This document shows, piece by piece, positions 42,051 through 59,326 of a DNA stretch of 64,000 nucleotides (position 1 is its first letter; every line of letters starts with the position of its first letter). This stretch comes from Pseudomonadota bacterium (GTDB lineage: Bacteria > Bdellovibrionota_B > Oligoflexia > Silvanigrellales > Silvanigrellaceae). Where the stretch lies: assembly GCA_039799905.1 (NCBI GenBank), contig JBDLRP010000042.1:32001-96000 (forward strand). The letters are read 5' to 3'. The notes under the pieces are model-generated. The model ran no database searches. It was not told where the DNA came from and worked only from the letters and a program-made list of their open reading frames with translations. The position numbers and the translations under genes were made by a program.

Positions 42051-43153
42051 AGTCAGCAGCTCATCTGGCGTTGTGGCTTGCAACAGGGATTTTCGCTTCT
42101 GCGGATGCAGATGCTGAAGCGGCTCAAAAGAAAAAGAGACGTCCGTCTCAGTCACTCACACGCAGCGGCGGGCCCCAACGAGCCGTGGGAATTGTTGAAG
42201 TCTTTCTTTTCAAGAATAAAAACGTTGCCCAACGCTGCGCTGCATCACACGTCGGAAACGGCATCGTCGTCACCGCGGGCCACTGTTTCCTGGGTGCCTA
42301 TGATTGCAACGAAGCTGTTGTTCACTGGGATGACGATTCGGTTGTCTCACGCTGTCAGCACATCATCTACAGCAATGCCAGCGAGGCCCACGCCAAAGGA
42401 CGGGAGATTTCAAACGATCTGACTGTATTCAAGGTCGACCGCTACCCTGAGGCCAGTGTCAACCTCGCGCCTGCAGCAATCGTTCAGGAACTGCAAAATG
42501 CGGGTGCTGATGCAATAGCAATTTCCAAAACGACACTCAACGGAAATCCCGCCACGATGACCTCGGCTACCTGCAGGATTGTCTTTGGTCCGATCCTGAA
42601 TATCTTCTCACAACCCAAGCCGTCGGACACCGCACGGCATAACTGCGACCTTTCCGAGATCTCCAGCGGCTCTCCGCTCATCAATTCGGCAACGAATCAA
42701 CTGATAGCACTGCATCAGGGCACAAGCCTCCTGCCGGATCTGGAATCGTCACCCAACGGTGCGTCGTCGCAAAAAATTCATTATGCCAAGGTCATCTCCG
42801 ATTTTGATGTGCGAAAGGCCATCAGTCTGCCTGATGCCCTGCCCAATGAAATTCGGGTGGGCGGTTTTGCAGGTGAGGTTTTCAATACCGGAATTGCAGA
42901 GCCCATCCAGATGACCGTTGCCCGCATTCAGGCGCGCGCTGGCGAGTCGACCGTCTCGTTCGGGGTACACAATGGTCTGGATTCGGTCATTGAGGCCATC
43001 GACGGCAACGGCAAGAAAATGATTTTTGCAGGCCCGCGTCGCGCTGGTTACGACCAGCGATTCCGCATGAAGGCTCCCGTGCAAATCAAGCTCACCAATG
43101 CACAGGGTGGCATCGCACCCGTCGCTTGGATTGAGGACATTCAAAGCCCATGA
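42047..43153 (+). CDS. Secreted trypsin-like serine protease, paralog of 743..1861
   Basis: CAASHVGNGIVVTAGHCF, NDLTVF and HNCD..EISSGSP. ATGA overlap with the upstream gene. Confidence 0.82.
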   Translation: MKSAAHLALWLATGIFASADADAEAAQKKKRRPSQSLTRSGGPQRAVGIVEVFLFKNKNVAQRCAASHVGNGIVVTAGHCFLGAYDCNEAVVHWDDDSVVSRCQHIIYSNASEAHAKGREISNDLTVFKVDRYPEASVNLAPAAIVQELQNAGADAIAISKTTLNGNPATMTSATCRIVFGPILNIFSQPKPSDTARHNCDLSEISSGSPLINSATNQLIALHQGTSLLPDLESSPNGASSQKIHYAKVISDFDVRKAISLPDALPNEIRVGGFAGEVFNTGIAEPIQMTVARIQARAGESTVSFGVHNGLDSVIEAIDGNGKKMIFAGPRRAGYDQRFRMKAPVQIKLTNAQGGIAPVAWIEDIQSP

Positions 43154-43168
43154 AGCGCTGACGTTTGC

Positions 43169-45478
43169 TCAAGGAGGAGGAGGGTCGTCGTCCCAGCAGA
43201 CACCGCTCCCCCCTGAACACTTGGGAATTGAGTAACGAATAGGCTTCGAGAGCAACCCAGAGACGTCCATATACCTCATGTAAAACTCAGCTGTATCGTC
43301 TTCTTTGAATGTAAAATCACTCAACTTCAATGTTCGCCGCACAGAAACCGGCGCCGCGGGTGTTCCACCATCAGACTCACGACAGCGGGTGTAGTCGCTG
43401 AGAGGCGCGGTGCTCACGGCATCCGCCGTGCCACCAATGACCCACTTGTAAATCAGCATTCCTATTTCCTCGTACTTGCCACCGGCATCCTGAGGCAAAG
43501 TTCTCACACTCAGGCGGTTGAGATCGTCACGGTACACATACGAGCCGATACTTTGCTGCAAGAAAGTGGCGTTTCCGCCCTTCTTTCCATTGAGATTCAT
43601 TTCTTCTTCGGACGGAGTTCCCGAGGGCAAACAAATAGCAGCTGGTACCGAGTCGTCAAAATGCATTGTGACCTTACCAGCGCTCAAATCCTGCATCGTT
43701 AATGGATTGAGGGTACTCGGGGCGTTTGTATCGTTGATTTTCATATCAATATCACCCAGCAAAACCGACTGATCATCGTCTGTGATAACCGGTCGACCGG
43801 TATCGATAATGACCGTTACCACATTCAAACGCTTGGGTGAGATTGCGTTCGGATCGTCAAGCGACTCACTGACGTTGCCGAACTTGTCTTTCATGAACAC
43901 ATTCCAACGCTGACGACCACCGGCCTGTGCGATCTTGGCGGCCCGCTGGATGAATCCTGCTTCCTCGGCAGTGAATGTGGCAACACCCTTTACACATTCC
44001 TTGAAGACAGGTTCGATCATGGAATAGGCAGGTATGCTGAATCCCAAAGAGTCGCCGTCGTTGCATATCGGTGATTGCATTGTGAACGTGCTGCCGGCAA
44101 GACCCGGCACAACATTGGTGTGTCCGGAAACGCTCACAATCTTCACGTTCGTCCAGTCGTCAACTTCGTCAATCGTTCCACCGACCTCTTCAACCTCGAC
44201 GGGAACCGCCAAATTCACCTTCATCAATAAATCACGCGAGGGCGGACCAACCTTTTTATGCCCGAAAATCACCAACGGCGGAAAAGCATCGGCATTGTCT
44301 GACGACGCAGTTGAGCGCGACACTTTGATTATAAACTTTCCTTCAGTCGAGTCCGTTTTCTTAAAAATCTTGGGCAACGGGATGCTAAATTCGGACTGAA
44401 AAATACTGACTTCCCTGGCTCCCTCAATGGCTTCAAGAGAGGGCTCGAATTTATTGTCGGTTTCAAAGACTTCAACTTTCGCACCGCGCAAATTCGGGGT
44501 CAGCGAATCAATCCGCAAAAACAGAGAGTCGTCTTTTGTATGAACGACGTCACGTCCATCAATTTTGAGGTACTTCAGTTTCTCGGGAAAGCTTGGCACC
44601 AGAGCGTTGCTTCCTCCCGACTGGTCGGCGCAGGTGCGCAGTATAACAACAGGAGGCGTTTTTTCGATTAGCGAAAAATTATTCGATGGCGCAGATAAGT
44701 ACGTACAATAGCCATCTGCCAGAGCAAGAATGTGATATCGGGTCAATTCAACGCTCGCATCGAGCGGACCGATAAATGCTGTGCCATCCTCTCCTGTTTT
44801 GACAAAAACAGGCCGCAAAAGTGAGTCATGCCAAAGCGGTACACCGGATTCAAGCTTGCCGTCAGAAATTCCCGAGACCTTAATTCCGGCCAGAGGCTGA
44901 CCCGATTCGTTGACCACTTTGACGCGCACAAATCCAGCTTTGTTGAACAGTAGTCCGTCAATGCCAATGGTATCTTTGCCGGCAAACAAATTTCGCCGTG
45001 AAAGTGGCAACGGCGCCTGAAAATATGGAATAGCCTGATAATCCAAAGTTGAGTTGACTGCAGGCATGATCTCGATGCGCGAATACTTGTCGACTTTCTC
45101 TACCAAGTCTGGCCGGCCTGTGCCAACGAATGGCAAAGCACCACCCATCGAGAGCAACTGATCGAGTTGTGTCGCCTTTTTCGCTTCATAGAGATCGCTG
45201 TCGCGCAGCTGGAACGAGAATTGTCCTTGCTCGCTGTTGTATTTCAAGTCGAAAGGCACCTGCCGTTGCCCCTCGGTGTCGATGAGTGAGAGCTGCAAGT
45301 TCTTGAGGTCGATTCCCTTTTGAACTCCGACAATTCCCGAAACGACGCGAGATTCACCCACCAAATAGACACGTCCGCCAGACGGCCTTGCACATGAATG
45401 CAGCCAGCCACAGGCAGCAATCAAGGCGATTGCACCTGTGGCCCGTTGCAGACTTTCTTGGAGAGCTCTCATAACCAT
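43169..45478 (-). CDS. Large hypothetical lipoprotein with a carboxypeptidase-regulatory-like domain
   Basis: Lipobox LHSC, VRVKVVNESGQPLAGIKV...TGEDG, several Cys, and C-terminus CSGGSGVCWDDDPPPP. Starts 28 nt after the stop of the giant coiled-coil gene. Confidence 0.75.
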   Translation of the reverse strand: MVMRALQESLQRATGAIALIAACGWLHSCARPSGGRVYLVGESRVVSGIVGVQKGIDLKNLQLSLIDTEGQRQVPFDLKYNSEQGQFSFQLRDSDLYEAKKATQLDQLLSMGGALPFVGTGRPDLVEKVDKYSRIEIMPAVNSTLDYQAIPYFQAPLPLSRRNLFAGKDTIGIDGLLFNKAGFVRVKVVNESGQPLAGIKVSGISDGKLESGVPLWHDSLLRPVFVKTGEDGTAFIGPLDASVELTRYHILALADGYCTYLSAPSNNFSLIEKTPPVVILRTCADQSGGSNALVPSFPEKLKYLKIDGRDVVHTKDDSLFLRIDSLTPNLRGAKVEVFETDNKFEPSLEAIEGAREVSIFQSEFSIPLPKIFKKTDSTEGKFIIKVSRSTASSDNADAFPPLVIFGHKKVGPPSRDLLMKVNLAVPVEVEEVGGTIDEVDDWTNVKIVSVSGHTNVVPGLAGSTFTMQSPICNDGDSLGFSIPAYSMIEPVFKECVKGVATFTAEEAGFIQRAAKIAQAGGRQRWNVFMKDKFGNVSESLDDPNAISPKRLNVVTVIIDTGRPVITDDDQSVLLGDIDMKINDTNAPSTLNPLTMQDLSAGKVTMHFDDSVPAAICLPSGTPSEEEMNLNGKKGGNATFLQQSIGSYVYRDDLNRLSVRTLPQDAGGKYEEIGMLIYKWVIGGTADAVSTAPLSDYTRCRESDGGTPAAPVSVRRTLKLSDFTFKEDDTAEFYMRYMDVSGLLSKPIRYSIPKCSGGSGVCWDDDPPPP

Positions 45479-45506
45479 CCTTGGCTACCGTCCTCCGTCA
45501 AGGCGC

Positions 45507-48500
45507 TCACTTGGATTTGAGCGCGGTTGTGAAAGCAGTGCTGAAGTACACGTCATAGCTGCTGCATCCCGATGATCCGCACTGCGCTGGGCCCCAGAAC
45601 TTGGCAGTCGTGCGCAGTTCGTTGCCATTGACAAACCGGCCGGCATCCTTGAGTGCCTTGTGTTTGAGTGCAACCTTCGTCACGCCCGTGCTCGCCAGTG
45701 AAACCAATTCGCCAGCGCTCGACTGACCATCTTTGTTCCTGTCGAACCAAACAAGCAACTTGCTATATGCGGCATCCTTGCTGTCGATCATGCCGTCGCG
45801 GTTTGAGTCGTACTGAGCAAGTGCGGCATAACCGTCGCGCGCCTTCTTGCCGCTGTGAGCCAGTCTGGTTCCCTCACCAAACAGCTCCCGACCACCGTCA
45901 ATCGCACCATTGCCGTCGAGGTCCATCGCGAGCAGGCCCACTCCGTCAAACCCACCAATCCAGCCAGTGCGTTCCTTCACGCCATCTCCGTCGAGGTCGA
46001 AACGAACCTTGCTCTCTTCGAGCGAGCTGAGCAGTGGTCGACCTACATTTGTGAAGTCGAGGATGATAGGCGAGAACAGCTGAACCGTGTAGGAACGTGT
46101 TGAACCGGCTGTTGGTCCGCCGAACGGTGTGAACTGAATCGATTCACCGTACCAGCTTTTTGAGCGGCGGATGAACGGTTCCAGAATACCGGGCATTTTG
46201 ATATCAAACACACCTTCAGCAGGCTGTCCGGTTAGCTTGGCGCTGGTACCGGCGACGCTTGCTGTGGCAGCGCTGACGTTCATCTGGAAGTTGAATTCTG
46301 CATCGCATGCAGAGTTCACACCCTTATCACACAAGTTTGCACGGACTCGCATTTTGTCTGCCGCACCAAAGACGCGGAACCAAATCGTGCTCGTTGCACT
46401 TGCCCATTGAGAGCCGGGGATTCCTCGGAAATTGACCCAGCACTGTGTTGTTCCGTGAGAGTGCCAGAACTTCACGCCGGCGCCGCGGCGGATACTAGTG
46501 CCGGTACAGGTGTCACTCCAGTTTGCCAGCGCAGGCGCAGTGAAGAAGTGCTGAACTTCCGAAATTTGCGGTGTGAGTTTCGGAATCTCACGTGGAGAAT
46601 AGCCAATATCGGCACCCGCAGCCTTTGTCGCAGCGACAAGTGTCGGCTCTCCTGAGCGAATGGCAAGCGTCATCATCACGTCGAGCGCTTTGCTCAGAGC
46701 TGACTCCATATTACCAGTTCTGTCCTGCAGCGATTTAACGTCTTTGGCTGTTTTGCCGAACTGTGCCAGCTGATCTTTCATAGCAGCGACATCTTTGTCG
46801 ATTTGACTGATACGTGCAGTTTGAGCGGCGTCTGTCGCCTCATTCGCAGCAAAGCGCTTTTGCACGTTTATCATCGTGTCGAACTCTTCTTGACGTTCAA
46901 TAGCTTCAAATGTCGAGTCGACCCCCTCGGTGATAGTGAAGGCCATTTTTCCAAGCAACGTATTTGCGGCATCTGCCGGCGAAACCTTGCCAATCTTCTC
47001 GGACGGACTGGTCATATTCGCCATCGCTGCGCTGATGGTTGTGTGCTTGCTGCTGATCATTTTCGCAAAACGCACTTCCACGTTGGCCAGCGACGGTTTC
47101 AATGCTGTAACGGAGTTAGCGAAGTCAGTGACGGCGCGTTTGAAGCCATCGTCGGCAACCAATCGGGCGCGAACATCTTTCGACGTCGCTGAAGTGCCAT
47201 TGAGAACGCCCATTGCCCACGCTTTGATCTGGCTCATACACTTCGGATCATCGGCCCCGCCCTCCACCTTGCGAATGGATTCAAGCATCACATAATGATG
47301 CAAGCTGCTGCCGTCTGTCAGCTTGGGCTGCCAGAAGTAGAGTGCGTCCATGTTCGAACCGCGATTTGAGTTCACCAGCGCAGAAATATATTCATCCGCA
47401 AGGAAGTCGAACGAATCACGGCCAAAGGCATTGGCGAAGTCGGCATCGGCTTTGCCGCCACACGATGCCATAATCGGAACAAAGGAAGCGTCGAATGCCT
47501 CAACACGGGTGATTTTATTTCCATTGCGCGTTGGCTGCTTTGGCTGCAGAGCCGCAAGGAACGCCCGTCGCAATTGGCCGAACATTGTCAGCGTGTTGAC
47601 AAGCGGACCCTTCGTGGGTTTACCGTTGACCATCACTTTGGTGACCGCACCATAGTCGGCAGATACACCATCGGAGAAAGCTGTCATGGAAGCATCGTCA
47701 AGTTTGAGGTCGACGACCTCAACCAGGTGGCTCGAAAGAGCACCTTCCATCGCCTTGTCCTGCGCTTTCATCTGAGCAAGATCGGTAGCAACCTTCTTGA
47801 AGTTTGCCTGAACTTCTGCACCGAGGTTAGCGACCATTTTTTCAGCGTTCGCGGCAACCTCTGCGAGGCGTTTGTTGAAGTCGGCCTTCATTTCTTCAAG
47901 GTTCTTGTTCAGGCCGTCGATTTGCCCCTGAGTCAACTTGAACTGATTTTGGACGTGTTCTTTTTGTGCAGCGACGTCGGCCTTGATCAAATTGATTTGG
48001 TCAGCATGTTGCTGCGCCATGGCCAACGACTGGTTGGCGATTTGTGCAACGGCCTTAATCTCGTCCTTCAAAGAGGTCATCTCTTTGGTCATCTGATCTT
48101 TCAATGCCTGCTCTGCAGCCACAACTTCTGCAAACTGCTTCTGCACTTTTTCCTGCTCTTCCTTCAACTCGGTGTTGGTTTTGTCAACCTGACTCTCCAA
48201 CGCAACGATCTTGTCGCTCAACTCTCTCTTGATATTCTGACTCACCCACTCGAAGTTGGCTGCTTCCGTCTTGACCTGCAACATGAGGTCCGCGTTTACG
48301 GCCTCCTGTTTGGCACTGTTGTCCGCGATAGCGGCAAACAAAGCGTCATCCTGATTCTTCATATCGCTGCGCACAGCGGAAAGCTCTTTGGTCATGTTTT
48401 CTTTGATGGCGTCAATCTGCTTTTGGTAATCAGCAATTGCACCGCCGAGTCCGTCGCGCACGCCCGCAACACTGACTTCTACGTTCTGAATTCGCTGAGC

Positions 48501-51500
48501 AAGTGATGAACTTGCAGCGTCGACTTCACTCGAAATCAATGCCTTCATTTTTTCACTTTCGCGTATCGCATCAGCCTTCATGATCGTGGTCACTTCCTCA
48601 AGGCCATCGATACGTACCCTGAGCGCCTGCAGCTCTCCCTTTGTTGCGTAGTTTTGCGCAACGTAAGCCTTGAACTCTTCCTGCGCCTGAGCAACGGCTT
48701 CGACGCGTGCCGCCACCTTTTGGGTTTCCAATGCAGCATCTGCGAGTTTCTTCTCGATTGCCTGAGCCGACGCTATAATGGCGGCTTCGGTCACTTTGCG
48801 CTCAGCAGCAAGGCCGGTCTTCAGGTCATCAATCGTCGCCAAGGTTTTCTGGTCGATGGCTTTTAAAGTTCCTTGCAGTTTGGCAATCTCTTCTGCACTC
48901 GAGTTGGCCTGTCCGGCCATCGCGGCTTTCAAGTCATCTTCAAGTTTCTGCCGAGCATCCGCCTGAGCAGTGTTGAGAGAAGATAAATCGGCGCTGAGCT
49001 GCTTGAGTTGCTCGGCACGTTCCGATTTCTCGAGCTCGAGTGCAATGCGTTGATCCGCAGTCGCCGCAGCAAGCTTGGCATCGAGTGCCGCAGTTGCCTG
49101 TTCCTGCTTCGAGATAGCTTCCATGAGCTCTGAAACTCTTCTTGCGGCATCGGCCTCAGCCTTTTTCTGGGCTTCAATCAGGAAGTCGATCTGTGCTTTC
49201 AGATTTGCGTTACCTGCGTCAATTTTGCTGATGAGGGAACTGTTCAATGCCGTCAGGGCATCGCCCGACTCCTTCCTCAGTGTCGCAACGGATTCATTCA
49301 ACGTGGATGTGAGGCGTGATTCCGCATCTTTCAGCTTGCCTTCCAAGCTTGCGATGCTGCCATTGATTGCGTTCACCTCATTTTTCAGCTTTTCAGAAAT
49401 CTTGCCATCGAGTGCGGCAAGCTTGTTGTCCATTGCGGAACTGAGGTTTGCGAGGCCATCGGCGATCTTGGCATCCAAGACACTGCGCGCTTCTTTGACG
49501 GTTGTGTCCAATGCGGTAATTTTCGCATTGAATTCACCCCGCAGATTCTCGACGTCCTCGCCCATCTTCTTTTCAATATTGTCCGCACGGGCTTTGCCCT
49601 CTGTATCGACTCTGACAATTTGCTCGGTCAAGGCGGCCATCTTCAGCTGGGTGGCAACTGATTCGGCCTTCAATTTTTCCGTGATGTCCTGAGTTGTCTT
49701 TTTTAGTTCTTCTGCGGATTGAGCAGACGCATCATTGATCTTCTTGTCAAGTTCGGCTCGGACTTTAGCATCACCTTCAGCCATTGTTACAAGCAAGCTG
49801 TCTGCTGCAGCCTTCAAGTCTGCTGCAGATTTAGAGGACGCCTCCTCGATCTTGGCCAACATTTGATTCTTTACTTTGACAATTTCAGAATTTGTCATTG
49901 AAAGGTTAGCATTGGTCGACGCAATCTCATTGATAATCTGCAGCGACTGAGCCTTGAGTGCCTCGATTGCTGCAGAATTTTTTCCGGCATCAGCTTTCGC
50001 CTCAGCAGCAAGTGCATCAAGCTTCTTTTGCATGTCAGCTCGGTTCGCATCATCCGTGCTCTTTATGAGAGCCTTCATTTCAGCAGCAAGCGAGTTCTTG
50101 CTGTCAACAATGGCCTGCTCGAGGGCAGCCTTTTCACGAGCCACCTGGCTCTGAAAATCTGCAAGCGCCGCGGTCGTAGAAATGATCTTCTTCTCATTGT
50201 CAGCAATTTTGGAATTGAGAACGTTTGCCTTTGTTTCGAAGGCGCTCTTGGTGGAGGCAATCTCGTTGGTATTGGTATCAATTTTCTTCTGCAGATCGGC
50301 CTTTTGTGCGGACAGGGAACTCTCAAGCGAAGCAACTTGTGAGCGGAGCTCGTCTGCAGATGCTGCGCTGGCAGCAGCGATTGCCGCATTGAGATTTGCA
50401 GTTGCCGACGTCAGGTTGCTGTTTGTTGCCGACAAATCGCTGTTCAGTTGGGTCAACTCTGAACGCAACGCAGTTTCCTGAGCAGCAAGACTCGCAACAA
50501 ACTGTTCTTTTGTCTGGCTCACTGACTCGCGTAGAGCAGCCTCGGTGAACGCCAATTGAGCTCTTGTCTCGTCAATTTTCGCAGCGTTGCTCGCGATCGC
50601 TGCGGACAATTTAGCGGCCTCCTCTGACAGTTTCGCAGCGTTTTCAGCATTGCCGTCGGCAATGGCTTTCGCAATTTCCTCGTTTTTCTTAATTTGTTCG
50701 GCTCTATTTGCATCAATGGCTTTTGAGTTTGTATCGATAGCTGACTGTAGCTCAGTCTTGGTTGCACTGATGGAGGCAACCAGCTCAGCCTTGGTTTTGT
50801 TGGCAGCATCCTCAAGAACTGCTTTGGTATCCGCAATAAATTTATTGGTGGAGTCGATTCGCGCATTTGCACGAGCAACTTCATCTTGCAGCTCAGCCTT
50901 CTGCTGCTGAAGCTTGTTCTCAAGAGCGTTGAGTCCGTCCTTCAAGGAAGCAACATTGGTGTCCAGATCCTGCTTGAGCAGATCCTGAGCAGCCTTGAGA
51001 GCCTCCTCTTTCTGCAGCATCAGTTCCTTGTTTGCTGCAATCTCGGCAGTGTTCGCTGCAATCTTCTCGTTCAATTCATCAGTGGCTGAAGCCAGCTCTT
51101 CAAGGGTAGCAGCATTGGCCACAGCAATGGCCTCGCGCAACTCCTCATCTTGCACTGCCATCTCACCACGCAATTTGCCTGCCTCAGCCAAGATCAAGTC
51201 AGTCAAGGAGTCGTTCTGAATTTTAAGCGAATTCTTAAGGCCGAGCTCGGCTTCGGCAAGGCGGATAGCATATTTTTTGTCAACTTCACTGATGCTCTCA
51301 CCCAGCTGTGCATCAGCTGCGGCGAGTTTTTCGAACTGGCCTTCCATGTACAATCGCAAAACCTGATCACGACTGTCCACATCCTTGAAACGATTTTCGA
51401 CCTGCACTTTGAAGTCGCGCAACTCGAGTTCAAGGGCGTCAATGCGAGCTCCCAAACGCTTGTCTTCTGCCTCGCGTTCCAATTTCTCTTTATCGATGAG

Positions 51501-51728
51501 GCCCCGCAACAGACGCTCGGTCGCTTCCGCGTTGCGCTTTGTCAGTGAGTCAGCTGTACCAGCGCTATTGGCCTTCAGTTTGGTCGAAGAGCGGGCAGCT
51601 AAGTCAAGCAGCTGTTGGTCGCTGCTGCCTGAAGTGCGTCCGCAACCACCAACGGTGGACAGTAGAGTCAGACTGGAAAATGACAAAAGCGCCATACGGA
51701 TTGAATGATTGCGTCTGTTTGATCTCAT
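45507..51728 (-). CDS. Giant coiled-coil lipoprotein (2073 aa) with a C-terminal FrpC SPM-like Ca-binding domain, paralog B
   Basis: Lipobox VGGC, about 1300 aa of heptad-rich A/E/K/L sequence, and C-terminus FSPIILD..FDLDGDG..TGW..LAMDLDGNGAIDGGRELFG..GYAALAQYDSNRDGMID..LLVWFDRNKDG.S..GEL.SL. Confidence 0.88.
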   Translation of the reverse strand: MRSNRRNHSIRMALLSFSSLTLLSTVGGCGRTSGSSDQQLLDLAARSSTKLKANSAGTADSLTKRNAEATERLLRGLIDKEKLEREAEDKRLGARIDALELELRDFKVQVENRFKDVDSRDQVLRLYMEGQFEKLAAADAQLGESISEVDKKYAIRLAEAELGLKNSLKIQNDSLTDLILAEAGKLRGEMAVQDEELREAIAVANAATLEELASATDELNEKIAANTAEIAANKELMLQKEEALKAAQDLLKQDLDTNVASLKDGLNALENKLQQQKAELQDEVARANARIDSTNKFIADTKAVLEDAANKTKAELVASISATKTELQSAIDTNSKAIDANRAEQIKKNEEIAKAIADGNAENAAKLSEEAAKLSAAIASNAAKIDETRAQLAFTEAALRESVSQTKEQFVASLAAQETALRSELTQLNSDLSATNSNLTSATANLNAAIAAASAASADELRSQVASLESSLSAQKADLQKKIDTNTNEIASTKSAFETKANVLNSKIADNEKKIISTTAALADFQSQVAREKAALEQAIVDSKNSLAAEMKALIKSTDDANRADMQKKLDALAAEAKADAGKNSAAIEALKAQSLQIINEIASTNANLSMTNSEIVKVKNQMLAKIEEASSKSAADLKAAADSLLVTMAEGDAKVRAELDKKINDASAQSAEELKKTTQDITEKLKAESVATQLKMAALTEQIVRVDTEGKARADNIEKKMGEDVENLRGEFNAKITALDTTVKEARSVLDAKIADGLANLSSAMDNKLAALDGKISEKLKNEVNAINGSIASLEGKLKDAESRLTSTLNESVATLRKESGDALTALNSSLISKIDAGNANLKAQIDFLIEAQKKAEADAARRVSELMEAISKQEQATAALDAKLAAATADQRIALELEKSERAEQLKQLSADLSSLNTAQADARQKLEDDLKAAMAGQANSSAEEIAKLQGTLKAIDQKTLATIDDLKTGLAAERKVTEAAIIASAQAIEKKLADAALETQKVAARVEAVAQAQEEFKAYVAQNYATKGELQALRVRIDGLEEVTTIMKADAIRESEKMKALISSEVDAASSSLAQRIQNVEVSVAGVRDGLGGAIADYQKQIDAIKENMTKELSAVRSDMKNQDDALFAAIADNSAKQEAVNADLMLQVKTEAANFEWVSQNIKRELSDKIVALESQVDKTNTELKEEQEKVQKQFAEVVAAEQALKDQMTKEMTSLKDEIKAVAQIANQSLAMAQQHADQINLIKADVAAQKEHVQNQFKLTQGQIDGLNKNLEEMKADFNKRLAEVAANAEKMVANLGAEVQANFKKVATDLAQMKAQDKAMEGALSSHLVEVVDLKLDDASMTAFSDGVSADYGAVTKVMVNGKPTKGPLVNTLTMFGQLRRAFLAALQPKQPTRNGNKITRVEAFDASFVPIMASCGGKADADFANAFGRDSFDFLADEYISALVNSNRGSNMDALYFWQPKLTDGSSLHHYVMLESIRKVEGGADDPKCMSQIKAWAMGVLNGTSATSKDVRARLVADDGFKRAVTDFANSVTALKPSLANVEVRFAKMISSKHTTISAAMANMTSPSEKIGKVSPADAANTLLGKMAFTITEGVDSTFEAIERQEEFDTMINVQKRFAANEATDAAQTARISQIDKDVAAMKDQLAQFGKTAKDVKSLQDRTGNMESALSKALDVMMTLAIRSGEPTLVAATKAAGADIGYSPREIPKLTPQISEVQHFFTAPALANWSDTCTGTSIRRGAGVKFWHSHGTTQCWVNFRGIPGSQWASATSTIWFRVFGAADKMRVRANLCDKGVNSACDAEFNFQMNVSAATASVAGTSAKLTGQPAEGVFDIKMPGILEPFIRRSKSWYGESIQFTPFGGPTAGSTRSYTVQLFSPIILDFTNVGRPLLSSLEESKVRFDLDGDGVKERTGWIGGFDGVGLLAMDLDGNGAIDGGRELFGEGTRLAHSGKKARDGYAALAQYDSNRDGMIDSKDAAYSKLLVWFDRNKDGQSSAGELVSLASTGVTKVALKHKALKDAGRFVNGNELRTTAKFWGPAQCGSSGCSSYDVYFSTAFTTALKSK

Positions 51729-51777
51729 GCCACGCCCCCATGGGATGAAAAATTTGCCCGGGAAGTTCCAAGAGGTA

Positions 51778-51804
51778 TGCTCGGCGGGTTTTCAAAAAGC
51801 TTGA
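51778..51804 (-). promoter_or_regulatory. Sigma28/FliA-like promoter of paralog B
   Basis: TCAA-N15-GCCGAGCA about 50 nt upstream of ATG 51728. Confidence 0.5.
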
Positions 51805-51919
51805 TAACTTTTGTTAAATCACTCGAATCATTGCTTTAATTTGCCGAGTCTGGGGTTCTGTTCGACTCCGGAGGTGGTGCCAGATTTGCCCGATTTCCGG
51901 TGCCGTTTACACAAAATGT

Positions 51920-51954
51920 AAAAAAGCGGCGAATCCACCAAAGGATTCGCCGCT
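51920..51954 (-). terminator. Intrinsic terminator after paralog A
   Basis: 12-bp perfect stem AGCGGCGAATCC-6 nt-GGATTCGCCGCT followed by TTTTT on the minus strand. Confidence 0.9.
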
Positions 51955-51989
51955 CGCATTACTGACTGACGCGCAAAGAACCGTTCCGT

Positions 51990-54900
51990 TTATTTGCCCT
52001 TCATGACGGTTGTGAATGCGGTACTGAAGTAAACATCATAGCTGTTGCAACCCTGACTGCCGCACTCCTGTGGTCCCCAGAACTTCGCCGTAGTGCGCAG
52101 CTCGTTGCCATTGATGAAGCGGCCCGCGTCTTTCAACGACTTATGCTTGAGGGATACCTTGGTGACACCGGTTTCAGCAAGCGGCACAATTTCGCCTTCT
52201 CCTGTCTTGCCATCCTTGTTCTTATCGAACCACACCAAAAGGTTGCTGTAGACAGCGTCCTTGGCATCAATCATGCCATCGCCGTTGTCGTCATACTGGG
52301 CAAGTGCGGCATAACCGTCGCGTGCGCGTTTTCCGTTACGCACCAGTTTCGTTCCTTCGCCAAACAGCTCTAGCCCGTTGTCAATGCTGCCATTTCGGTT
52401 GAGGTCCATGGCCAAAATGCCCACGCCTCCGTATCCGCCGATCCAGCCAGTCCGCTCCGTCACTCCGTCTCCGTTCAGGTCAAAGCGGACTTTGCTTTGG
52501 TCAATGGATGTAAACTGTGGCCGCCCAATGTTTGTATAGTCGAGGACGATCGGTGAATAGAGCTGAACCCGATACGCAGAGGTTGCTCCAGCTTTGCCAT
52601 CTCCAAATGGCGTGAAACTGATCACCTCACCCCACCAGGCAGAATCGAGGTATCCATAGCCAAAGTTGCTTGACCTGCGGATGTAGGGGTCAAGAATCAA
52701 CGGCATCCTAAAGTCGAACACACCCTCAACAGGTTGACCGGTGAGCTTGGAACTGATGCCAGCGACACTCGTCGTAGCAGCTGTGGAGCTGAACTGATAA
52801 CTAAACTCGGCATCACAGGTCGAGTTAGCGCCTTTGTCGCACAAATTCGAACGCACGCGCATTTTGTCGGCGGCACCGAACACACGGAACCAAATCGTAC
52901 TCGCTGCACTTGACCATTGCCTGCTCGAAATACCGCGGAAGTTCACCCAACACTGTCCGCCCGCAGTCCAGAATTTAACGCCTGCTCCGCGGCGGATGCT
53001 GTTGCCGGTACAGGCGTCGCTTCCGTTTGCCAGTGCGGGTGCCGCAAAGAAGTGCTGAACTTCCGAAATCGCGGGTTTAACCGGACGCACTTCCTTAGGC
53101 GCATAACCCATTGCAGCGCCCGCTGCTTTCGTAGCAGCAACCAATGAAGGCTCACCCGAACGAATGGCCAAACTGAGCATCACATCGAGCGCCTTGCTTA
53201 AAGCGGCTTCCATTTTTCCAGTTTTATCCTGCAGCGATTTGACATCGTTTGCAGTCTTTCCAAACTGGGCAAGCTGAGTTTTCATAGCTGCGACATCTTT
53301 GTCCAGACTATTGATGCGCGCTGTCTGCTTTGCATCGGTGGCTTCGTTCTGAGCAAAGCGTTTTTGTACCTCGACGATCGCGTCGAACTCTTCCTGACGC
53401 TGGATTGCGTCAAAGGTCGCGTCGACACCGTCGGCAATCGTGAAAGCCATTTTGCCCAACAAATTATTAGCAGCATCTGCCGGCGACACCTTGCCCAGCT
53501 TCTCCGCCGGATTGCTGATATTCACCATAGCCTGTGAAATCGTCGTGTGTTTGTTGTTGATCATCTTTGCGAACCGAAGCTCAACGGCTGCCAGTGATGG
53601 TTTCAAATCGTTGACCGACTTGGCAAAATCCGCAACAACCCGCTTGAAGTTGTCGTTGCCGGCAAGACGCGCGCGCACGTCCTTCGACGTTGCCGATTTG
53701 CCATTCAAAATACCTGTTGCCCATGCTTTCACTCGGCTCATGCAATTCGGGTCGTCCGCGCCACCTTCAAGTTTGCGCACTGCCTCAAGCAACACGTAGT
53801 GATGAAGGTTTGAGCCGTCACTCAGCTTGGGCTGCTTGAAGAAGACTGCATCCATGTTGGAGCCGCGATTTGAGTTAATCAGTGCCGAAACATACTCGTC
53901 AGCAAGAAAGTCGAATGAATCCCGGCCAAATGCGTTGGCAAAATCGGCATCTGCACGGCCGCCGCATGCCGCCATGATAGGAACAAATTCCGCATCAAAA
54001 CCCTCATTGCGTGTCAATTTGGCTCCGTCGCGGGTCGGCATCTTCGGTTGCAGGGCCTGAAGGAATGCCTTTCTTACCTCACCGAAAAGCTCGAGTGTGG
54101 TGACCAGTGGGCCGCGAGTTGGTTTTCCATTCACGATGGTCTTTGTAACCTTACTGAAATCAGACGTCACTCCGTCTGAGAATGCAGTCATCGAACCTTC
54201 ATCCAGCTTGAGGTCAACGACCTCGACGAGATGGCTCGAAAGTGCACTTTCCATCGCTTTGTCCTGTGCCTTCATTTGAGCGATGTCGGTCGCGACCTTC
54301 TTGAAGTTTTCCTGAACTTCGCTGCCCAAATTTGCAACCAGTTTTTCCGCATTCGCCGCGACTTCAGCAAGACGCTTGTTGAAGTCGGCTTTCATCTCAT
54401 CCATTTTCGTGTTGAGCCCGTCAATCTGGCCCTGAGTAAGCTTGAACTGCTTAGCCACGTGCTCTTTCTGGGCTTCAACATCGGCTTTGATAAGATTGAT
54501 CTGCTCTGCATTTTGTTGTGCCATCGCCAAAGACTGATTGGCGATTTGTGCAACCGCCTTGATCTCATCCTTGAGGGCAGAGATCTCTTTGGTCATCTGA
54601 TCCTTCAAGGCCTGTTCCGCAGCTACCACTTCGGCAAACTTCTTTTGAACAGCTTCCTGCTCGGCCTTCAAGTCGGTGTTGGTTTTGTCGATCTGGCTCT
54701 CGAGTGCGACAATCTTCTCACTCAGTTCCTTCTTGACGTTTTGACTCATCGTTTCAAAGTTTGCCGCCTGAGTTTTAATTTGCAACATCAGGTCTGCATT
54801 AACTGCCTCTTGTTTCGCTTTATTGTCCGCAATCGAAGCAAACAGAGCGTCATCCTGAGTCTTCATGTCCGAACGCACCGAGGCCAGCTCTTTCGACATG

Positions 54901-57900
54901 TTGTCCTTGATCGACGATATCTGCTTTTGATAATCATCAATCGCGCCACCAAGCTTGTCGCGAACGTCTGCAACGTTGGCCTCGACGCTCTGTATCCGCT
55001 CCGTCAGTGCGCTTTTGGCAGCTTCCACCTCTTTCGAAATAAGTGTCTTCATCTCCTCGTTCGAGCGGACCATGTCTGCGTTCATGATCTTCGTGACATC
55101 TTCCAGGCCAGAAACGCGTGTTTGAAGCGCAAGCAACTCACCCTTGGTTGCGTAGTTTTGTGCGACGTAGGCTTTGAATTCTTCCTGCGCCTGCGCAACT
55201 GCCTCAACCCGCGCAGCGACTTTCTGTGTTTCAATGGCGGCGTCTGCCAACTTTTTCTCGATTGCCTGTGCCGAAGCAATGATTGCTGCCTCGGTCACCT
55301 TGCGCTCTTCAGCCAAACCAGTTTTTAGGTCGTCGATGGTCGCGAGTGTTTTCTTGTCGATTTCCTTCAGAGCACCCTGAAGATTGGCGAGTTCGTCGGC
55401 ACTCGCAGCTGCCTGTCCGGCAAGAGCAGTCTTCAGGTCAGCCTCGAGTTTTGCACGTGCATCAGACTGTGCAGTGTTGAGTGAGGTAAGGTCGGCGCTT
55501 AACTGCTTCAACTCAGCGGCCCGCGCCTGCTTTTCAAGCTCAAGCGCAATTGCTTGTTCTGCACTGGCAGCAGCCAGTTTGGCATCCAGAGCAGCGTTGG
55601 CGAGTTCCTGTTGACCAATCTTCTCCAGCAGGTCGGCGACCTGTTTTGCGGCATCCGACTCGGCCTTTTTCTGAGCCTCGACAAGGAAGTCAATTTGCGC
55701 CTTGAGGTTTGCGTTGCCTGCATCAATCTTACTTGTCAGACTCGTATTCAACGCTGTCAACGCATCGGATGACTCTTTGCGCAGAGTGTTCATGGAATCA
55801 TTTAATTGGGTTGTCAGTTTTTGTTCAGTTTCAACCAGCTTGCCTTCGAGGTTGGCAATACTGCCGTTGATCGCAGAAACCTCCGCTTTCAATTTGTCTG
55901 AAATCTTACCTTCCAGAGAAACAAGTTTGGAGTCCATTGCCGCACTGACGTTTGCCAGACCTTCGTTGATCTTGGCGCTGAGCACGTCGCGGGCATCCTT
56001 AACCGACGCATCGAGGGCGGTGATTTTTGCAGTAAATTCTCCACGGATATTGTCTATGTCTTCCGCCATTTTCTTCTCAAGATTCGCGGAGCGTTCTTTT
56101 CCTTCTGTATCGACCTTGACGATTTGTTCAGTCAATGCCGCCATCTTCAGCTGCGTGGAAACCGACTCTGCTTTCATTTTATCGGTAATGTCGGCTGTCG
56201 CCGCTTTCAACGCGTCTGCCGACTCAGTCGAAGCATCATCAATGCGCTTCTCAAGGTCTGCACGCACTTTGGCGTCAGCTTCGGCCATCTGTGTGAGCAG
56301 CCCATCAGCCGCCGCTTTCAGGTCTGCCGCAGATTTGTTTGAAGCCTCTTCGATCTTTGCAAGCATCTGGTTCTTAACGCGGGCAATTTCGGAGTTCGTC
56401 ATCTCCAGATTTGAGTTCGTTTTGGCGATCTCCTCGATAATTTCCAAAGATTGCGCCTTCAGTGCATCAATCGCGGCGGCGTTCTTGTTGGAGTCTGCTT
56501 TTGCATCCGCTGCAACCGCATCGAGCTTCTTCTGCATTTCTAGCCGATTAGCCTCATCAGTGCTCTTGATGAGCGCCTTCATCTCTGCAGCAAGAGAGTT
56601 TTTACTGTCGACAATCGCCTGTTCAAGTGCAGCCCTCTCCTGCGCCACTTGTGTTTTGAAATCGTCGAGTGCAGCTGTTGTTGAAATGATTTTCTGCTCA
56701 TTTGCATCAATTTTTGCTTCGAGATCTGCAGCCTTGGTTTCAAATGCACTCTTGTTGTCTGCAATCGCTTTTGTGTTGTCGTCGATTTGCTTTTGCAGCT
56801 CGGCCTTTTGCTCAGTCATGCTGGATTCCAGAGCAGCAACTTTCGACCTGATCAGCTCAGAAGTACTTGCACTCGCAGCCTCAATCGCTGTCTGCAAATT
56901 GGACTTCGCAATCTCGAGGTTGCTGTTGGTGTCGTTAAGGTCAGATTTTATTTGGGCAAGGCCTGCCTCGAAGGCGACCTGTTGATCGGTCAAACTTGCA
57001 ACCATCTGGTCTTTTGTCTGACTGATTGAATTGATCAGGGCGACTTCAGTCGACTTCAGCTGACTTTTTGTTTCCTCAATGGCTGCCGAGTTGCTTGCAA
57101 TTTTTGCAGCGAGCTCTGCAGCTTTTAAATTCAGTGACTCCGTCAACTCGGCATTGCCAGCGGCTATTGCCTTGCTCAACGAGTCGTTGACCTTGAGCTG
57201 CTCAGCTTTGTTGTCCGCTATAGCCTTTGCGTTCGCATCTATTGACGACTGAAGTGATGTTTTTGTTTCGTTGAGGCTTGCAACAAGTTCCGCCTTCGTC
57301 TTGTTGGCGGCGTCTTCCAGCAGCGATTTGGTGTCGGCGATAAACTTGTTGGAGGAATCGATACGTGCATTTGCCTTGGCCACTTCATCAAGCAGCTCCG
57401 CCTTCTGCTGTTGCAGGCTGTTTTCCAAAACATTCAAGCTATCCTTCAATGCTGCAACGTTTGTCGAGATGTCCTTTTTGAGCAGTTCCTGCGCTGCCTT
57501 CAGAGCTTCTTCTTTCTGCAGCATCAGTTCCTTGTTGGCGATAATATCGGCTGTGTTCTGAGCTATTTTCTTATCGAGCTCGTCCTTCGCTTCAGCAAGC
57601 TGATCGAGCGTCGCAGCGTTTGTAACTGCAATTTCTGCGCGCAGTGCCGCATCCTGGTCGGCAAGTTCACCACGCAATTTTCCAGCTTCCGCAAGCACAA
57701 GGTCTGTCAGGGAGTCGTTTTGGGCCTTCAGAGATTCCTTCAGTGCCAGTTCTGCTGCGCCAATCCGCATTGCAAATTTTTTGTCGATGTCGCTGATACT
57801 GGATGCCAACTGTGAATCCGCTTCTCTCAGTTTGTCGAATTGACCTTCCATATACAATCGCAGAACTTGATCTCGGCTGTCGACGTCGGTGAAGCGTTTC

Positions 57901-58232
57901 TCGACTTGTTCCTTGAATGTTCTGAGCTCAAGCTCGAGGGCATCTATGCGGTCACTCAGACGTTTGTCCTCAGCAATACGTTCGTCTCTCTCTTTGTCGA
58001 TGAGTCCACGCAAGAGGCGCTCAGTCGCTTCGGCGTTTCGTTTGGTGAGAGAATCCGCAACACCAGAGCTGTTCGCTTTCAGGCGGGTGGAAGAACGCGC
58101 AGCCAAATCGAGTAGCTGCTGATCGCTGCCCCCGGAATTGCGTCCGCATCCCCCAACAGTTGCTAGCAAGGTGAGACTCGAGAATGACAAAAGAGTCATA
58201 CGAATTGCTTGCTTGCGCCTGTTTGTTCTCAT
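51990..58232 (-). CDS. Giant coiled-coil lipoprotein (about 2080 aa) with a C-terminal FrpC SPM-like domain, paralog A
   Basis: Colinear with 45507..51728 from MRTNRRKQ...VGGC to YSPIVLD...FSTAFTT. Start set at ATG 58232 by alignment with paralog B and an AAGGGG SD. Confidence 0.88.
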   Translation of the reverse strand: MRTNRRKQAIRMTLLSFSSLTLLATVGGCGRNSGGSDQQLLDLAARSSTRLKANSSGVADSLTKRNAEATERLLRGLIDKERDERIAEDKRLSDRIDALELELRTFKEQVEKRFTDVDSRDQVLRLYMEGQFDKLREADSQLASSISDIDKKFAMRIGAAELALKESLKAQNDSLTDLVLAEAGKLRGELADQDAALRAEIAVTNAATLDQLAEAKDELDKKIAQNTADIIANKELMLQKEEALKAAQELLKKDISTNVAALKDSLNVLENSLQQQKAELLDEVAKANARIDSSNKFIADTKSLLEDAANKTKAELVASLNETKTSLQSSIDANAKAIADNKAEQLKVNDSLSKAIAAGNAELTESLNLKAAELAAKIASNSAAIEETKSQLKSTEVALINSISQTKDQMVASLTDQQVAFEAGLAQIKSDLNDTNSNLEIAKSNLQTAIEAASASTSELIRSKVAALESSMTEQKAELQKQIDDNTKAIADNKSAFETKAADLEAKIDANEQKIISTTAALDDFKTQVAQERAALEQAIVDSKNSLAAEMKALIKSTDEANRLEMQKKLDAVAADAKADSNKNAAAIDALKAQSLEIIEEIAKTNSNLEMTNSEIARVKNQMLAKIEEASNKSAADLKAAADGLLTQMAEADAKVRADLEKRIDDASTESADALKAATADITDKMKAESVSTQLKMAALTEQIVKVDTEGKERSANLEKKMAEDIDNIRGEFTAKITALDASVKDARDVLSAKINEGLANVSAAMDSKLVSLEGKISDKLKAEVSAINGSIANLEGKLVETEQKLTTQLNDSMNTLRKESSDALTALNTSLTSKIDAGNANLKAQIDFLVEAQKKAESDAAKQVADLLEKIGQQELANAALDAKLAAASAEQAIALELEKQARAAELKQLSADLTSLNTAQSDARAKLEADLKTALAGQAAASADELANLQGALKEIDKKTLATIDDLKTGLAEERKVTEAAIIASAQAIEKKLADAAIETQKVAARVEAVAQAQEEFKAYVAQNYATKGELLALQTRVSGLEDVTKIMNADMVRSNEEMKTLISKEVEAAKSALTERIQSVEANVADVRDKLGGAIDDYQKQISSIKDNMSKELASVRSDMKTQDDALFASIADNKAKQEAVNADLMLQIKTQAANFETMSQNVKKELSEKIVALESQIDKTNTDLKAEQEAVQKKFAEVVAAEQALKDQMTKEISALKDEIKAVAQIANQSLAMAQQNAEQINLIKADVEAQKEHVAKQFKLTQGQIDGLNTKMDEMKADFNKRLAEVAANAEKLVANLGSEVQENFKKVATDIAQMKAQDKAMESALSSHLVEVVDLKLDEGSMTAFSDGVTSDFSKVTKTIVNGKPTRGPLVTTLELFGEVRKAFLQALQPKMPTRDGAKLTRNEGFDAEFVPIMAACGGRADADFANAFGRDSFDFLADEYVSALINSNRGSNMDAVFFKQPKLSDGSNLHHYVLLEAVRKLEGGADDPNCMSRVKAWATGILNGKSATSKDVRARLAGNDNFKRVVADFAKSVNDLKPSLAAVELRFAKMINNKHTTISQAMVNISNPAEKLGKVSPADAANNLLGKMAFTIADGVDATFDAIQRQEEFDAIVEVQKRFAQNEATDAKQTARINSLDKDVAAMKTQLAQFGKTANDVKSLQDKTGKMEAALSKALDVMLSLAIRSGEPSLVAATKAAGAAMGYAPKEVRPVKPAISEVQHFFAAPALANGSDACTGNSIRRGAGVKFWTAGGQCWVNFRGISSRQWSSAASTIWFRVFGAADKMRVRSNLCDKGANSTCDAEFSYQFSSTAATTSVAGISSKLTGQPVEGVFDFRMPLILDPYIRRSSNFGYGYLDSAWWGEVISFTPFGDGKAGATSAYRVQLYSPIVLDYTNIGRPQFTSIDQSKVRFDLNGDGVTERTGWIGGYGGVGILAMDLNRNGSIDNGLELFGEGTKLVRNGKRARDGYAALAQYDDNGDGMIDAKDAVYSNLLVWFDKNKDGKTGEGEIVPLAETGVTKVSLKHKSLKDAGRFINGNELRTTAKFWGPQECGSQGCNSYDVYFSTAFTTVMKGK

Positions 58233-58279
58233 CACACGCCCCCTTGCGATTAAATAAAATCGAGTCTTGACATCAGAGA

Positions 58280-58306
58280 GGCTCGGAAGAGTTGAGGGAA
58301 TATTTA
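58280..58306 (-). promoter_or_regulatory. Sigma28/FliA-like promoter of paralog A
   Basis: TAAA-N15-TCCGAGCC about 48 nt upstream of ATG 58232, at nearly the same distance as in paralog B. Confidence 0.5.
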
Positions 58307-58492
58307 TAGAAAATCTCAAGGAGCTAATAAAACTCAGTAATTTTAGATACAAAATTTGCGCTGCTCACGTCCCCTGCAGTGCAATTCCTGAGGAATAGAA
58401 AATGGCCCATTCATTTCGGCATGTAAAAGGTACCGTCTAAACATCCCAAGCTTATCTTCCGATACGTCTGAGTGTTTGCATTCGGGGGTGCC

Positions 58493-59326
58493 GTGAATCA
58501 CATTTTGCCATACGTGTCCGTGGCTGTTTTGTTGTTTCAAGGGTGCGAGAGCGCACCAACCTACAAAGCGACTTCAAAGCCACCCGTGACTAAATCTAAG
58601 GCTGGCGCCAACGCTGAGGCTATCGGGAGCGAAGGCGCCAGCGCGGCGCAGGAAGAAAACGTAGGACAAGCCCAGCCGCCGGGCGAAAATGCGACGCCTG
58701 AAGAACCCAAACCAGTTGCTCGTCCGTCATGTGACGACAAAACAACGGTGAAGAGCGACGTCATCAAGGTCTTGATTCCCAAAAATGATCCGCAAAATGG
58801 CGGAAAACAATGTCCTTTCGGAAAAGACGACAACAACGCGACGACCAACGGCGGCGGGAAATATACAGCTCGTATTGAACGACGTTTCGACATCGCGATC
58901 CCTGCCGACAGACAGGTCTGCACTCTTGAGGCCAGCAGCGCACAACAACAGATTGAGTACGACGACCATCTTTTCCTGAATCTCAACAACCATGTGTTGA
59001 TAGCAAGCCGCAGAATTCCGACCGACAAATTCAACAAGGCTGCAAACGGTTTTTACCTGTACGACTGGGCAAAAATCCGAGGAACACAGGCGGAAGGGCA
59101 ATCCAAATGCGCAGACGGCGTCACGTGTTCGATTCCAAACACGCAGACAACGGGCACCTTTTCCTTCAAGTTGAGTGAAGAAGCCAACAAGCGGATATTC
59201 GAGTCGCTTGCCGGACAACCACTGTATTTCAGCATGGTTCTGACCGGCGACGACAACCCGCCTGTCGATTGCTCCCAAATATACGATATTACTCTGGATG
59301 TTTCGTACACCTACATCCCCAAATAG
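58493..59326 (+). CDS. Hypothetical Cys-rich lipoprotein
   Basis: Lipobox FQGC, an Ala/Glu/Pro linker and a beta-rich domain with six further Cys. GTG 58493 follows GGGGG. Confidence 0.75.
   Translation: MNHILPYVSVAVLLFQGCESAPTYKATSKPPVTKSKAGANAEAIGSEGASAAQEENVGQAQPPGENATPEEPKPVARPSCDDKTTVKSDVIKVLIPKNDPQNGGKQCPFGKDDNNATTNGGGKYTARIERRFDIAIPADRQVCTLEASSAQQQIEYDDHLFLNLNNHVLIASRRIPTDKFNKAANGFYLYDWAKIRGTQAEGQSKCADGVTCSIPNTQTTGTFSFKLSEEANKRIFESLAGQPLYFSMVLTGDDNPPVDCSQIYDITLDVSYTYIPK

Follow-up and report, generated by a model that had tools for sequence, protein, structure and literature searches.

A predicted lipid-anchored coiled-coil fibre with an FrpC-like terminal fold and two candidate partner genes in Silvanigrellaceae and other Oligoflexia

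Few routes are known that place lipoproteins on the Gram-negative cell surface, and none was found for 190-nm lipid-anchored coiled-coil trimers. Slam translocators have a layout of tetratricopeptide repeats plus a 14-strand barrel, while triads of the SprB-SprF-PorE type in type IX secretion systems (T9SS) combine a giant surface protein, its cognate barrel and a lipoprotein with a carboxypeptidase-regulatory-like domain; for an enterobacterial trimeric autotransporter, a lipoprotein helper is reportedly known. The MAT fibres of Bdellovibrio are described, in the part of the source available, as trimeric beta-helix/beta-prism fibres of ~55 nm that share a beta-rich domain of ~130 aa behind the signal peptide and are tipped by S74 or a beta-sandwich (PMC10769870). 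The available text on the SPM (self-processing module) found in Neisseria FrpC reports four Ca2+ sites, a Ca2+ affinity near 150 uM, a Trp pair and cleavage of the D414-P415 bond through attack by the Asp carboxylate, and calls the SPM exclusive to a subset of RTX proteins (Kuban et al., PMC7078468); according to another partly available source, the D414A exchange in FrpC abolished cleavage and ligation (Scheu et al., PMC7846742). Here we analyzed a 64,000-nucleotide stretch of contig JBDLRP010000042.1 (assembly GCA_039799905.1; hereafter the window) from a Silvanigrellaceae bacterium, in which two giant predicted lipoproteins, A and B, end in this fold. Together with a downstream lipoprotein gene (C) and a predicted outer-membrane barrel gene (E), the fibre genes make up a real, conserved and apparently undescribed three-gene system. 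We hold it to be modestly probable that the fibre is a trimeric surface structure of ~190 nm, exported or anchored by C and E and ending in a non-cleaving, Ca2+-binding SPM fold.

Fibre genes A (58232-51990, minus strand; 2,080 aa counted from the ATG) and B (51728-45507, minus strand; 2,073 aa) lie in tandem and are identical at 1,555 of 2,082 aligned columns (75%) over their entire length. Both open with a basic n-region and a hydrophobic stretch followed by V-G-G-C29; the Cys29 codon of A is at 58148-58146, and the signal peptide and lipobox of B span 51642-51728 (minus strand) with Gly, not Asp, at position +2. The lipobox was judged by eye, without a signal-peptide predictor; with the N-terminal Cys that recurs nearby in full-length homologues, it predicts that A and B are bacterial lipoproteins. 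Each lipoprotein signal is followed by a coiled-coil stalk, a helical domain, a neck, an Ig-like domain and the SPM-fold domain, a head layout that was assigned to A via its 75% identity to the B model. Cysteines occur as a pair at 1423/1497, four in the beta region and a pair near the C-terminus. The open reading frames (ORFs), lipobox, Cys pairs and beta region thus bear out the initial annotation, made from sequence, of two tandem ~2,080-aa paralogs with a common layout. As a trait of the system the twin arrangement does not hold, since it is a local duplication and most loci carry a single fibre. The reported lack of RTX nonapeptides and type I secretion system (T1SS) genes also stands: a sequence scan found no GGxGxD motif in A or B, and the T1SS adaptor TIGR01843 had no match over cut-off in the 94% complete genome.

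The stalk of B (residues ~30-1340; 47709-51641, minus strand) consists of ~1,310 residues with 19% Ala and a hydrophobic period of 3.54-3.66, mostly 3.6-3.66. Gly makes up 2.5% and Pro is absent over 1,260 residues, the first proline of A and B coming not before residue 1371. A coiled coil rises 0.148 nm per residue, so the stalk would be ~190 nm long if continuous; the lipobox and this proline-free length agree with the lipid-anchored rod of ~190 nm proposed earlier. Two motifs bear on its oligomeric state, as given in the portions of the sources available: the pattern [aliphatic]-A-T-K-[polar]-[DE] is the beta-layer consensus of trimeric coiled coils (Hartmann et al., PMC4786415), and R-h-x-x-h-E is a trimer determinant that is present in some dimers too (Bjelic et al., PMC3653964). 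Three R-h-x-x-h-E motifs were found in each of A and B, a count that 0 of 500 shuffles equalled, along with one Y-A-T-K-G-E each (B residues 1027-1032 at 48633-48650, minus strand; the same position in A at 55154-55137), which 20-21 of 500 shuffles equalled. Over 70 fibres, R-h-x-x-h-E occurred 144 times compared with 11.6 in shuffles, and the beta-layer-type motif, for which the pattern also admitted Tyr or Phe as first residue, 41 times compared with 1.4, in 38 of the 70. Under a stricter control based on h-x-x-h frames in 82 fibres, R-h-x-x-h-E was still observed 164 times against 50.7, while K-E, E-K and E-R pairs were enriched just 1.4-1.6 fold. Because both trimer-type motifs are enriched family-wide, the stalk is likely to be a parallel coiled coil of three strands.

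The region beyond the stalk was modelled with AlphaFold2 for B residues 1304-2073 (27 sequences; predicted local distance difference test [pLDDT] 69.9, predicted template modelling score [pTM] 0.45). In this model, a helical domain (~1341-1600, including Cys1423/Cys1497) and a short coiled-coil neck (~1601-1716; together 46581-47708, minus strand) precede an immunoglobulin/fibronectin type III (Ig/FnIII)-like beta-sandwich (~1717-1885; 46074-46580, minus strand), whose last strand continues into the Ser-Pro of the terminal domain. The sandwich match was middling (Z 7.7, root-mean-square deviation [rmsd] 2.5, 82 residues aligned), and a low-confidence inserted loop differs among clades, being short in A and B and more than 100 residues longer in the clade of a third fibre of this genome (contig C48). 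The helical domain, which was never modelled alone, gave no clear fold match by Foldseek or by structural alignment of the head model and no usable Atlas match.

The terminal ~190 residues (188 in each; B 1886-2073 at 45510-46073 and A 1893-2080 at 51993-52556, both minus strand) matched the FrpC SPM (6sjw) in a sequence search at E 7.6e-28. The Foldseek comparison suggested in the initial annotation gave E 9.8e-11 for the B C-terminal model, and VIA structural alignment gave Z 21.7 with rmsd 2.5 A over 163 of 179 residues at 36% identity. The equivalent of the scissile D414 is Ser (S1886-P1887 in B, S1893-P1894 in A), and Ser-Pro begins the domain in 27/27 aligned fibres and in all 76 distinct SPM-terminated ORFs of the loci, of which 74 were scored by pattern and two by eye. 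Three EF-hand-like loops (1-3) and both Trp (W451/W519 equivalents) are retained; among the 27 aligned fibres the Trp pair and the equivalents of D499, D521 and E532 are present in 27, E474 in 25 and D462 in 23, and loop-4 ligands D421 and D423 are lost. Since Ser stands at the D414 position in all 76 members and D414A abolishes FrpC cleavage, clip-and-link is likely absent and the fibre domain would fold on Ca2+ without cutting. The idea of an FrpC-like self-processing module therefore holds for the fold and falls for the self-processing. More widely, the SPM fold was found in 23,599 clusters at 50% identity (E up to 0.001), and PF26745, a newer precomputed accession, marks SPM-bearing matches. 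A set of 208 SPM-like regions retrieved with the B head as query, and hence biased to the B type, divided into (i) 119 in RTX-repeat proteins, with Ser-Pro in 58, Asp-Pro in 29 and other pairs in 32; and (ii) 89 in non-RTX proteins, with Ser-Pro in 84.

Other proteins ending in this fold were observed. Many giant RTX/cadherin-like proteins (P0044-P0068) carry a tandem pair of Ser-Pro SPM-like domains close to their C-terminus, and in some of them an Asp-Pro copy also lies further upstream. Short predicted lipoproteins (420-610 aa) that end in a Ser-Pro SPM fold are common in the class, often near small lipoproteins (L033, L042, L044, L048, L055, L065-L071, L095, L098-L100, L147 and L148), the highest count, nine matches, being that of genome G081. 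A 550-aa Ser-Pro SPM-terminated protein (L061:6230-7879) has, by eye, a prepilin-like N-terminus and no Pfam match and adjoins a gene with a near-threshold N_methyl match; the fold may cap a pilus or pseudopilus there too. On closed chromosomes of a Bdellovibrio genus, six secreted proteins of 380-410 aa with an SPM-like end were found (L178-L183, in G125, G127, G128, G137, G140 and G159); the six short proteins examined there have non-lipoprotein signal peptides, as judged by eye, and five of the six have Ser-Pro. SPM-like forms of 1,100 aa were located at L184 and L185.

Gene C (45478-43169, minus strand; 769 aa) starts 28 nt past B and encodes a predicted lipoprotein (Cys29). It was modelled as a chain of beta-sandwiches (pLDDT 77.8) containing a transthyretin-like domain (Z 9.7, rmsd 2.2, 81 residues aligned) and FnIII-like domains. 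A neighbourhood survey was made of 53 distinct long fibres, of which 8 were unscorable (contig end or truncated next gene). C followed 35 of the 45 readable ones, directly or past a tandem fibre, and 0 of 19 complete short (~420-610 aa) SPM-terminated proteins, so C tracks the long fibre and not the SPM as such. Across seven families C is the next gene, mostly within tens of bases. Of the two accessory lipoproteins first proposed, then, C is conserved, while the divergent gene D is a fibre neighbour only here and in one other genome, G012; the survey of relatives in addition yielded a third gene, E. In a quick-method tree, the window-type C and the C that follows the 1,561-aa third fibre on contig C48 fell in different clades.

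The C48 locus (L031:7235-16022, equal to G000:C48:65234-74021) holds a full set of fibre, C paralogue, barrel E and a fourth predicted lipoprotein of ~575 aa with no Pfam match, which is kept after E in L039, L047, L049 and L126. At L037:2-5044 (G003:C184), fibre and C share a single open frame with no stop between them, either a natural fusion or an assembly error. The last ~30 residues of the fibre at L051:5323-10599 (G011:C136) diverge, probably through a frameshift or assembly error; a near-identical record (P0024, L161) ends normally.

Family E, absent from the initial annotation, was found by comparing the genes downstream of fibres. Its members (370-550 aa) have a signal peptide, a small beta N-domain, ~10 alternating strands as counted by sequence pattern only and a barrel-type C-terminal strand. 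They match outer-membrane barrel families of Pfam and NCBIfam below threshold and a Bdellovibrionota outer-membrane barrel cluster with an Atlas score of 0.95; E is thus predicted to be a 10-strand outer-membrane barrel. In one or two copies, E adjoins fibre and C in 18 of 29 readable loci, including the C48 locus of the window genome. A stand-alone E occurs in 13/13 genomes of the genus; in G011 it is the sole E found, and the sole C there is of the window type. The stand-alone copy of the window genome (L136:7123-8460, equal to G000:C21:269125-270459) has a gene for an aromatic amino-acid hydroxylase on one side and, on the other, a convergent gene for a 418-aa predicted lipoprotein; its context is similar in G011 and G001. 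The barrel gene after the Bdellovibrio-type fibre at L087 was considered as E and rejected as unrelated. A complex prediction for C (2-522) and E (23-369) of the C48 operon scored 0.37 and one control 0.66, and the result was used neither way.

Distribution was examined in 116 genomes of the phylum, in which the long fibre, scored as a match that reaches the helical domain, was found in 22, C in 23 and E in 25 (one marginal). C and E were both present in 21 of the 22 long-fibre genomes, representing 12/13 genera and 7/8 families, and all 23 genomes with C carry E. These counts come from C and E profiles that include genes from beside fibres, from kin that are non-independent and from assemblies of which many are fragmentary; the narrower C-terminal alignment used for scans finds only part of the family, and the broad one was too diverse. 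The long fibre is patchy, with 0/13 genomes in sister genus g5, 1/21 in family f8 and 1/44 in a Bdellovibrio genus, where an SPM-like match of some kind is present in 36/44, for the most part in short proteins. Fibre copy number ranges from 1 to 3, the stalk is of variable length, and the heads are not alike across clades. Close homologues came from 29 records, every one a metagenome-assembled genome, labelled Silvanigrellaceae, Oligoflexia, Oligoflexales, Bdellovibrio or Pseudobdellovibrionaceae, and the named relatives of the host are uncultured Silvanigrellaceae/Oligoflexia. Among viral contigs, 75 candidate relatives were considered and none was confirmed. No protein among A, B, C, D and E is named by a Pfam or NCBIfam family above cut-off; matches to SMC and helix-rich families were set aside as compositional.

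On the favored reading, each chain would be exported by Sec and lipidated at Cys29, and the lipidated chain would be delivered to the outer membrane by Lol (LolA is present in the window genome). Single unfolded chains could then pass through, or dock on, E, with C as a periplasm-side chaperone or base, roles suggested by gene linkage only. Ca2+-driven folding of the SPM domain would start trimer assembly from head to base, and the Ig-like head would be shown ~190 nm out, reaching surfaces, particles or other cells. The window fibres would be served by E in trans, the stand-alone copy at G000:C21:269125-270459 being the likeliest. Because the rod is far longer than the width of the periplasm, and because of its partners, we infer a cell-surface location; display at the surface and a dedicated C-E route are both plausible. 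Attachment to surfaces or other cells as the role of the head is a guess. The adhesion to prey proposed in the initial annotation was considered and dropped, as Silvanigrella and Fluviispira, the cultured Silvanigrellaceae, are listed as non-predatory in the part of the source available (PMC11656739) and long fibres occur in 1/44 Bdellovibrio-genus genomes. A bolder version, possible but doubtful in our view, treats the three genes as a new, dedicated pathway for both outer-membrane export and anchoring, a 'split autotransporter', in which the separate small barrel and the Ig-chain lipoprotein would thread 2,000-residue lipidated chains to the surface, where Ca2+-dependent folding of the Ser-Pro SPM would drive the trimer to assemble from the tip. 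If this were true, the SPM fold would be a general Ca2+-folding export module first and the clip-and-link of FrpC a derived special case.

Several observations weigh against the surface-fibre reading. With regard to E, (i) 11 of the 29 readable fibre-C loci have no adjacent copy, the window locus among them (9 of the 11 are of the window clade, window counted); (ii) its Atlas recognition score of 2213 is under the 2300 mark; and (iii) a 10-strand barrel would be too narrow for a folded trimer. Ten of the 45 readable long fibres are not followed by C, six of them Bdellovibrio-type and four from Oligoflexia, and in the three genomes with the six Bdellovibrio-type fibres C is missing and any E match is marginal at best. 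Conversely, C and E are both present in 2 of 94 genomes without a long fibre (G077 and G086) and stand together with no fibre nearby at L116, L117, L122, L168, L170 and L172, while in G006 (86% complete) E was found and neither C nor a long fibre was. The presence of C and E in fibre genomes is also partly by construction because their profiles were built from fibre-adjacent genes. As for the fibre itself, the head is not hypervariable (49-67% identity among 23 close homologues compared with 38-56% in the stalk), its model has a pTM of 0.45, and most beta-layer hits begin with Tyr or Phe, whereas the published consensus is aliphatic. Surface location, oligomer state and partner interactions are all predicted. 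Finally, the genome encodes three secretins, one of them GspD-type and over cut-off; this one would be an alternative exit.

This secretin makes type II export a candidate route, and the explanation that competes best, unlikely as we judge it, is that the surface fibre leaves by a general route of this kind while C and E form a separate, often co-regulated outer-membrane module such as a base plate, sensor or receptor. The occurrence of C and E without fibres, the Bdellovibrio-type and four Oligoflexia fibres without adjacent C, and the short SPM proteins that require neither gene would all suit such independence. It sits poorly with the placement of C directly next to the fibre, mostly within tens of bases, across seven families, and with the finding of C and E in just 2/94 genomes that lack long fibres. 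An improbable alternative is that the rod stays periplasmic and runs parallel to the membrane, where it would brace or shape the envelope while C and E tether it to the outer membrane. The predicted lipid anchor, the want of a proven export signal and the conservation of the head among close kin would be compatible with a strut, as would SlpA studies, which reportedly place trimeric coiled coils with beta-layers in envelope connectors. Yet 190 nm is well beyond the width of the periplasm; a patchy distribution, a copy number of 1-3, variable stalk length and clade-specific heads are further points against it, and no peptidoglycan-binding domain was found with Pfam or NCBIfam.

We consider it quite improbable that the terminal domain still self-processes by way of its Ser, through an N-to-O acyl shift at the bond between the aromatic residue and Ser, and is released in the manner of the MAT-fibre S74 chaperone. 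Such a role would account for a Ser that is invariant in 76/76, for a C-terminal position like that of S74 and for the invariance of the probable D579 equivalent among the 27 aligned fibres. The FrpC chemistry, however, strains an Asp-Pro bond and requires the Asp carboxylate, and across the wider SPM family the D414 position is also occupied by Ala, Pro, Thr, Arg, Lys, Gly, Glu or Asn, a tolerance that fits a structural role for this position. Least credible, and very improbable, is that the helical region is dimeric, or else a row of helical bundles that fold back on themselves, and makes a shorter particle: a period near 3.6 and high Ala are seen in helical repeat proteins and R-h-x-x-h-E is found in some dimers, but 1,260 residues with no Pro and 2.5% Gly leave few turns and both trimer motifs are enriched.

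The remaining features of the locus are of local interest. Gene D (58472/58493-59326, plus strand, probable start 58493), divergent from A, encodes a predicted lipoprotein with 7 Cys; it was excluded from the system. A fibre adjoins it in this genome and in G012 only; G004 lacks it at that position, no homologue was found in loci L031-L100, and it occurs in other neighbourhoods in G001, G005, G006, G008 and G010. Homologues of D were found in 25 of 61 genomes, and matches to its unnamed family of Cys-rich lipoproteins reach 10 in a single genome (G043). A terminator-like hairpin of 13 pairs (8 G-C) with a T tail (51924-51955, minus strand) lies between A and B, which are 261 nt apart; A may form one transcription unit and B-C another. 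This hairpin is the top-ranked of 29 terminator-like sites, a count not above that of shuffles (mean 23.5, sd 5.2), and promoter-like sites were at chance level (12 compared with 9.3). Metatranscriptome contigs from four runs (three studies) map on A and B, and a single one runs from B into the beginning of C (45077-45946); neither transcription nor its strand or level can be read from contigs. The flanking genes are housekeeping or unrelated and include a U32-family protein, an AddAB-like pair of PD-(D/E)XK nuclease and UvrD-like helicase (33755-40278, plus strand) and, convergent on C at 40350-43153 (plus strand), a 566-aa secreted protein of no family with a trypsin-like protein, a pair kept beside C in the closest relatives only (L035, L075, L077 and L127). 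Elsewhere in the window genome, giant ORFs with lipoprotein-like starts, open frames of 6,191, 2,236 and at least 2,128 aa and no SPM match were seen at G000:C19:71910-90482 (minus strand), C3:38770-45477 (plus strand) and C36:147632-154015 (plus strand), respectively.

The view that no system of this architecture has been described was upheld in the literature searched, drawn mostly from outside subscription journals, on SPM homologues, Bdellovibrio fibre and coiled-coil lipoproteins, Oligoflexia genomes and surface fibres, and lipoprotein translocons, which contained no description of the trio. The supplementary SPM alignments of PMC7078468 and PMC12538545, sources available in part, may hold an earlier notice of Ser-Pro forms. 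As a three-gene module without a curated family for any member, this is a candidate new fibre and export pathway in uncultured Oligoflexia. In addition, a module described as RTX-exclusive and used in protein ligation tools here ends Sec-type proteins without its cutting Asp, and the short SPM-terminated proteins of the Bdellovibrio genus, some on closed chromosomes, make the role of Ser-Pro testable in a group with cultured members.

Set beside known systems, the terminal domain shares with the FrpC/ApxIVA SPM (Neisseria FrpC, PDB 6SJW; PMC7078468, available in part) the fold, EF-hand-like loops 1-3, the Trp pair and the starting Pro. It differs in having Ser for the scissile Asp, in the lost loop-4 ligands, in its C-terminal position and added Cys pair, and in a host protein of the Sec/lipobox type without RTX repeats. 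RTX proteins of T1SS have GGxGxD repeats, no N-terminal signal and HlyB/HlyD, whereas here the repeats are missing, a lipobox is present and no adaptor was over cut-off. Compared with MAT fibres, the similarity would be that of paralogous trimeric surface fibres of Bdellovibrionota with a C-terminal folding module. The loose analogy drawn earlier is fair as far as that, and membership is not: A and B are alpha-helical predicted lipoproteins with a helical, Ig-like and SPM head, their stalk follows directly after Cys29 with no N-terminal beta domain, and the window fibre proteins have no S74 Pfam match. With Slam (type XI), the locus shares an outer-membrane barrel gene linked to lipoprotein cargo, but E has ~10 strands by pattern and a small beta N-domain, the cargo is a giant coiled coil and there is an extra lipoprotein, C; the Slam barrel PF04575 gave no match for E homologues or the genome, in a search whose control matched nowhere. 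The T9SS triads have a comparable set of giant protein, barrel and lipoprotein; the fibre cargo differs in being helical and, by prediction, lipidated, and no PorP/SprF or T9SS C-terminal domain was matched in Pfam or NCBIfam. Trimeric autotransporter adhesins (YadA, OMP100) have a similarly long coiled-coil stalk, beta-layers, non-heptad periodicity and a distal head, but the fibre has the opposite polarity, with a predicted N-terminal lipid anchor and C-terminal head, its barrel is a separate gene, and the YadA anchor PF03895 was absent from the fibre proteins and the genome while an E. coli control matched. Judged by these defining features, the system belongs to none of the RTX/T1SS, trimeric autotransporter and MAT families; in its workings the fibre would resemble a trimeric autotransporter adhesin with its two ends swapped and its barrel made as a separate protein.

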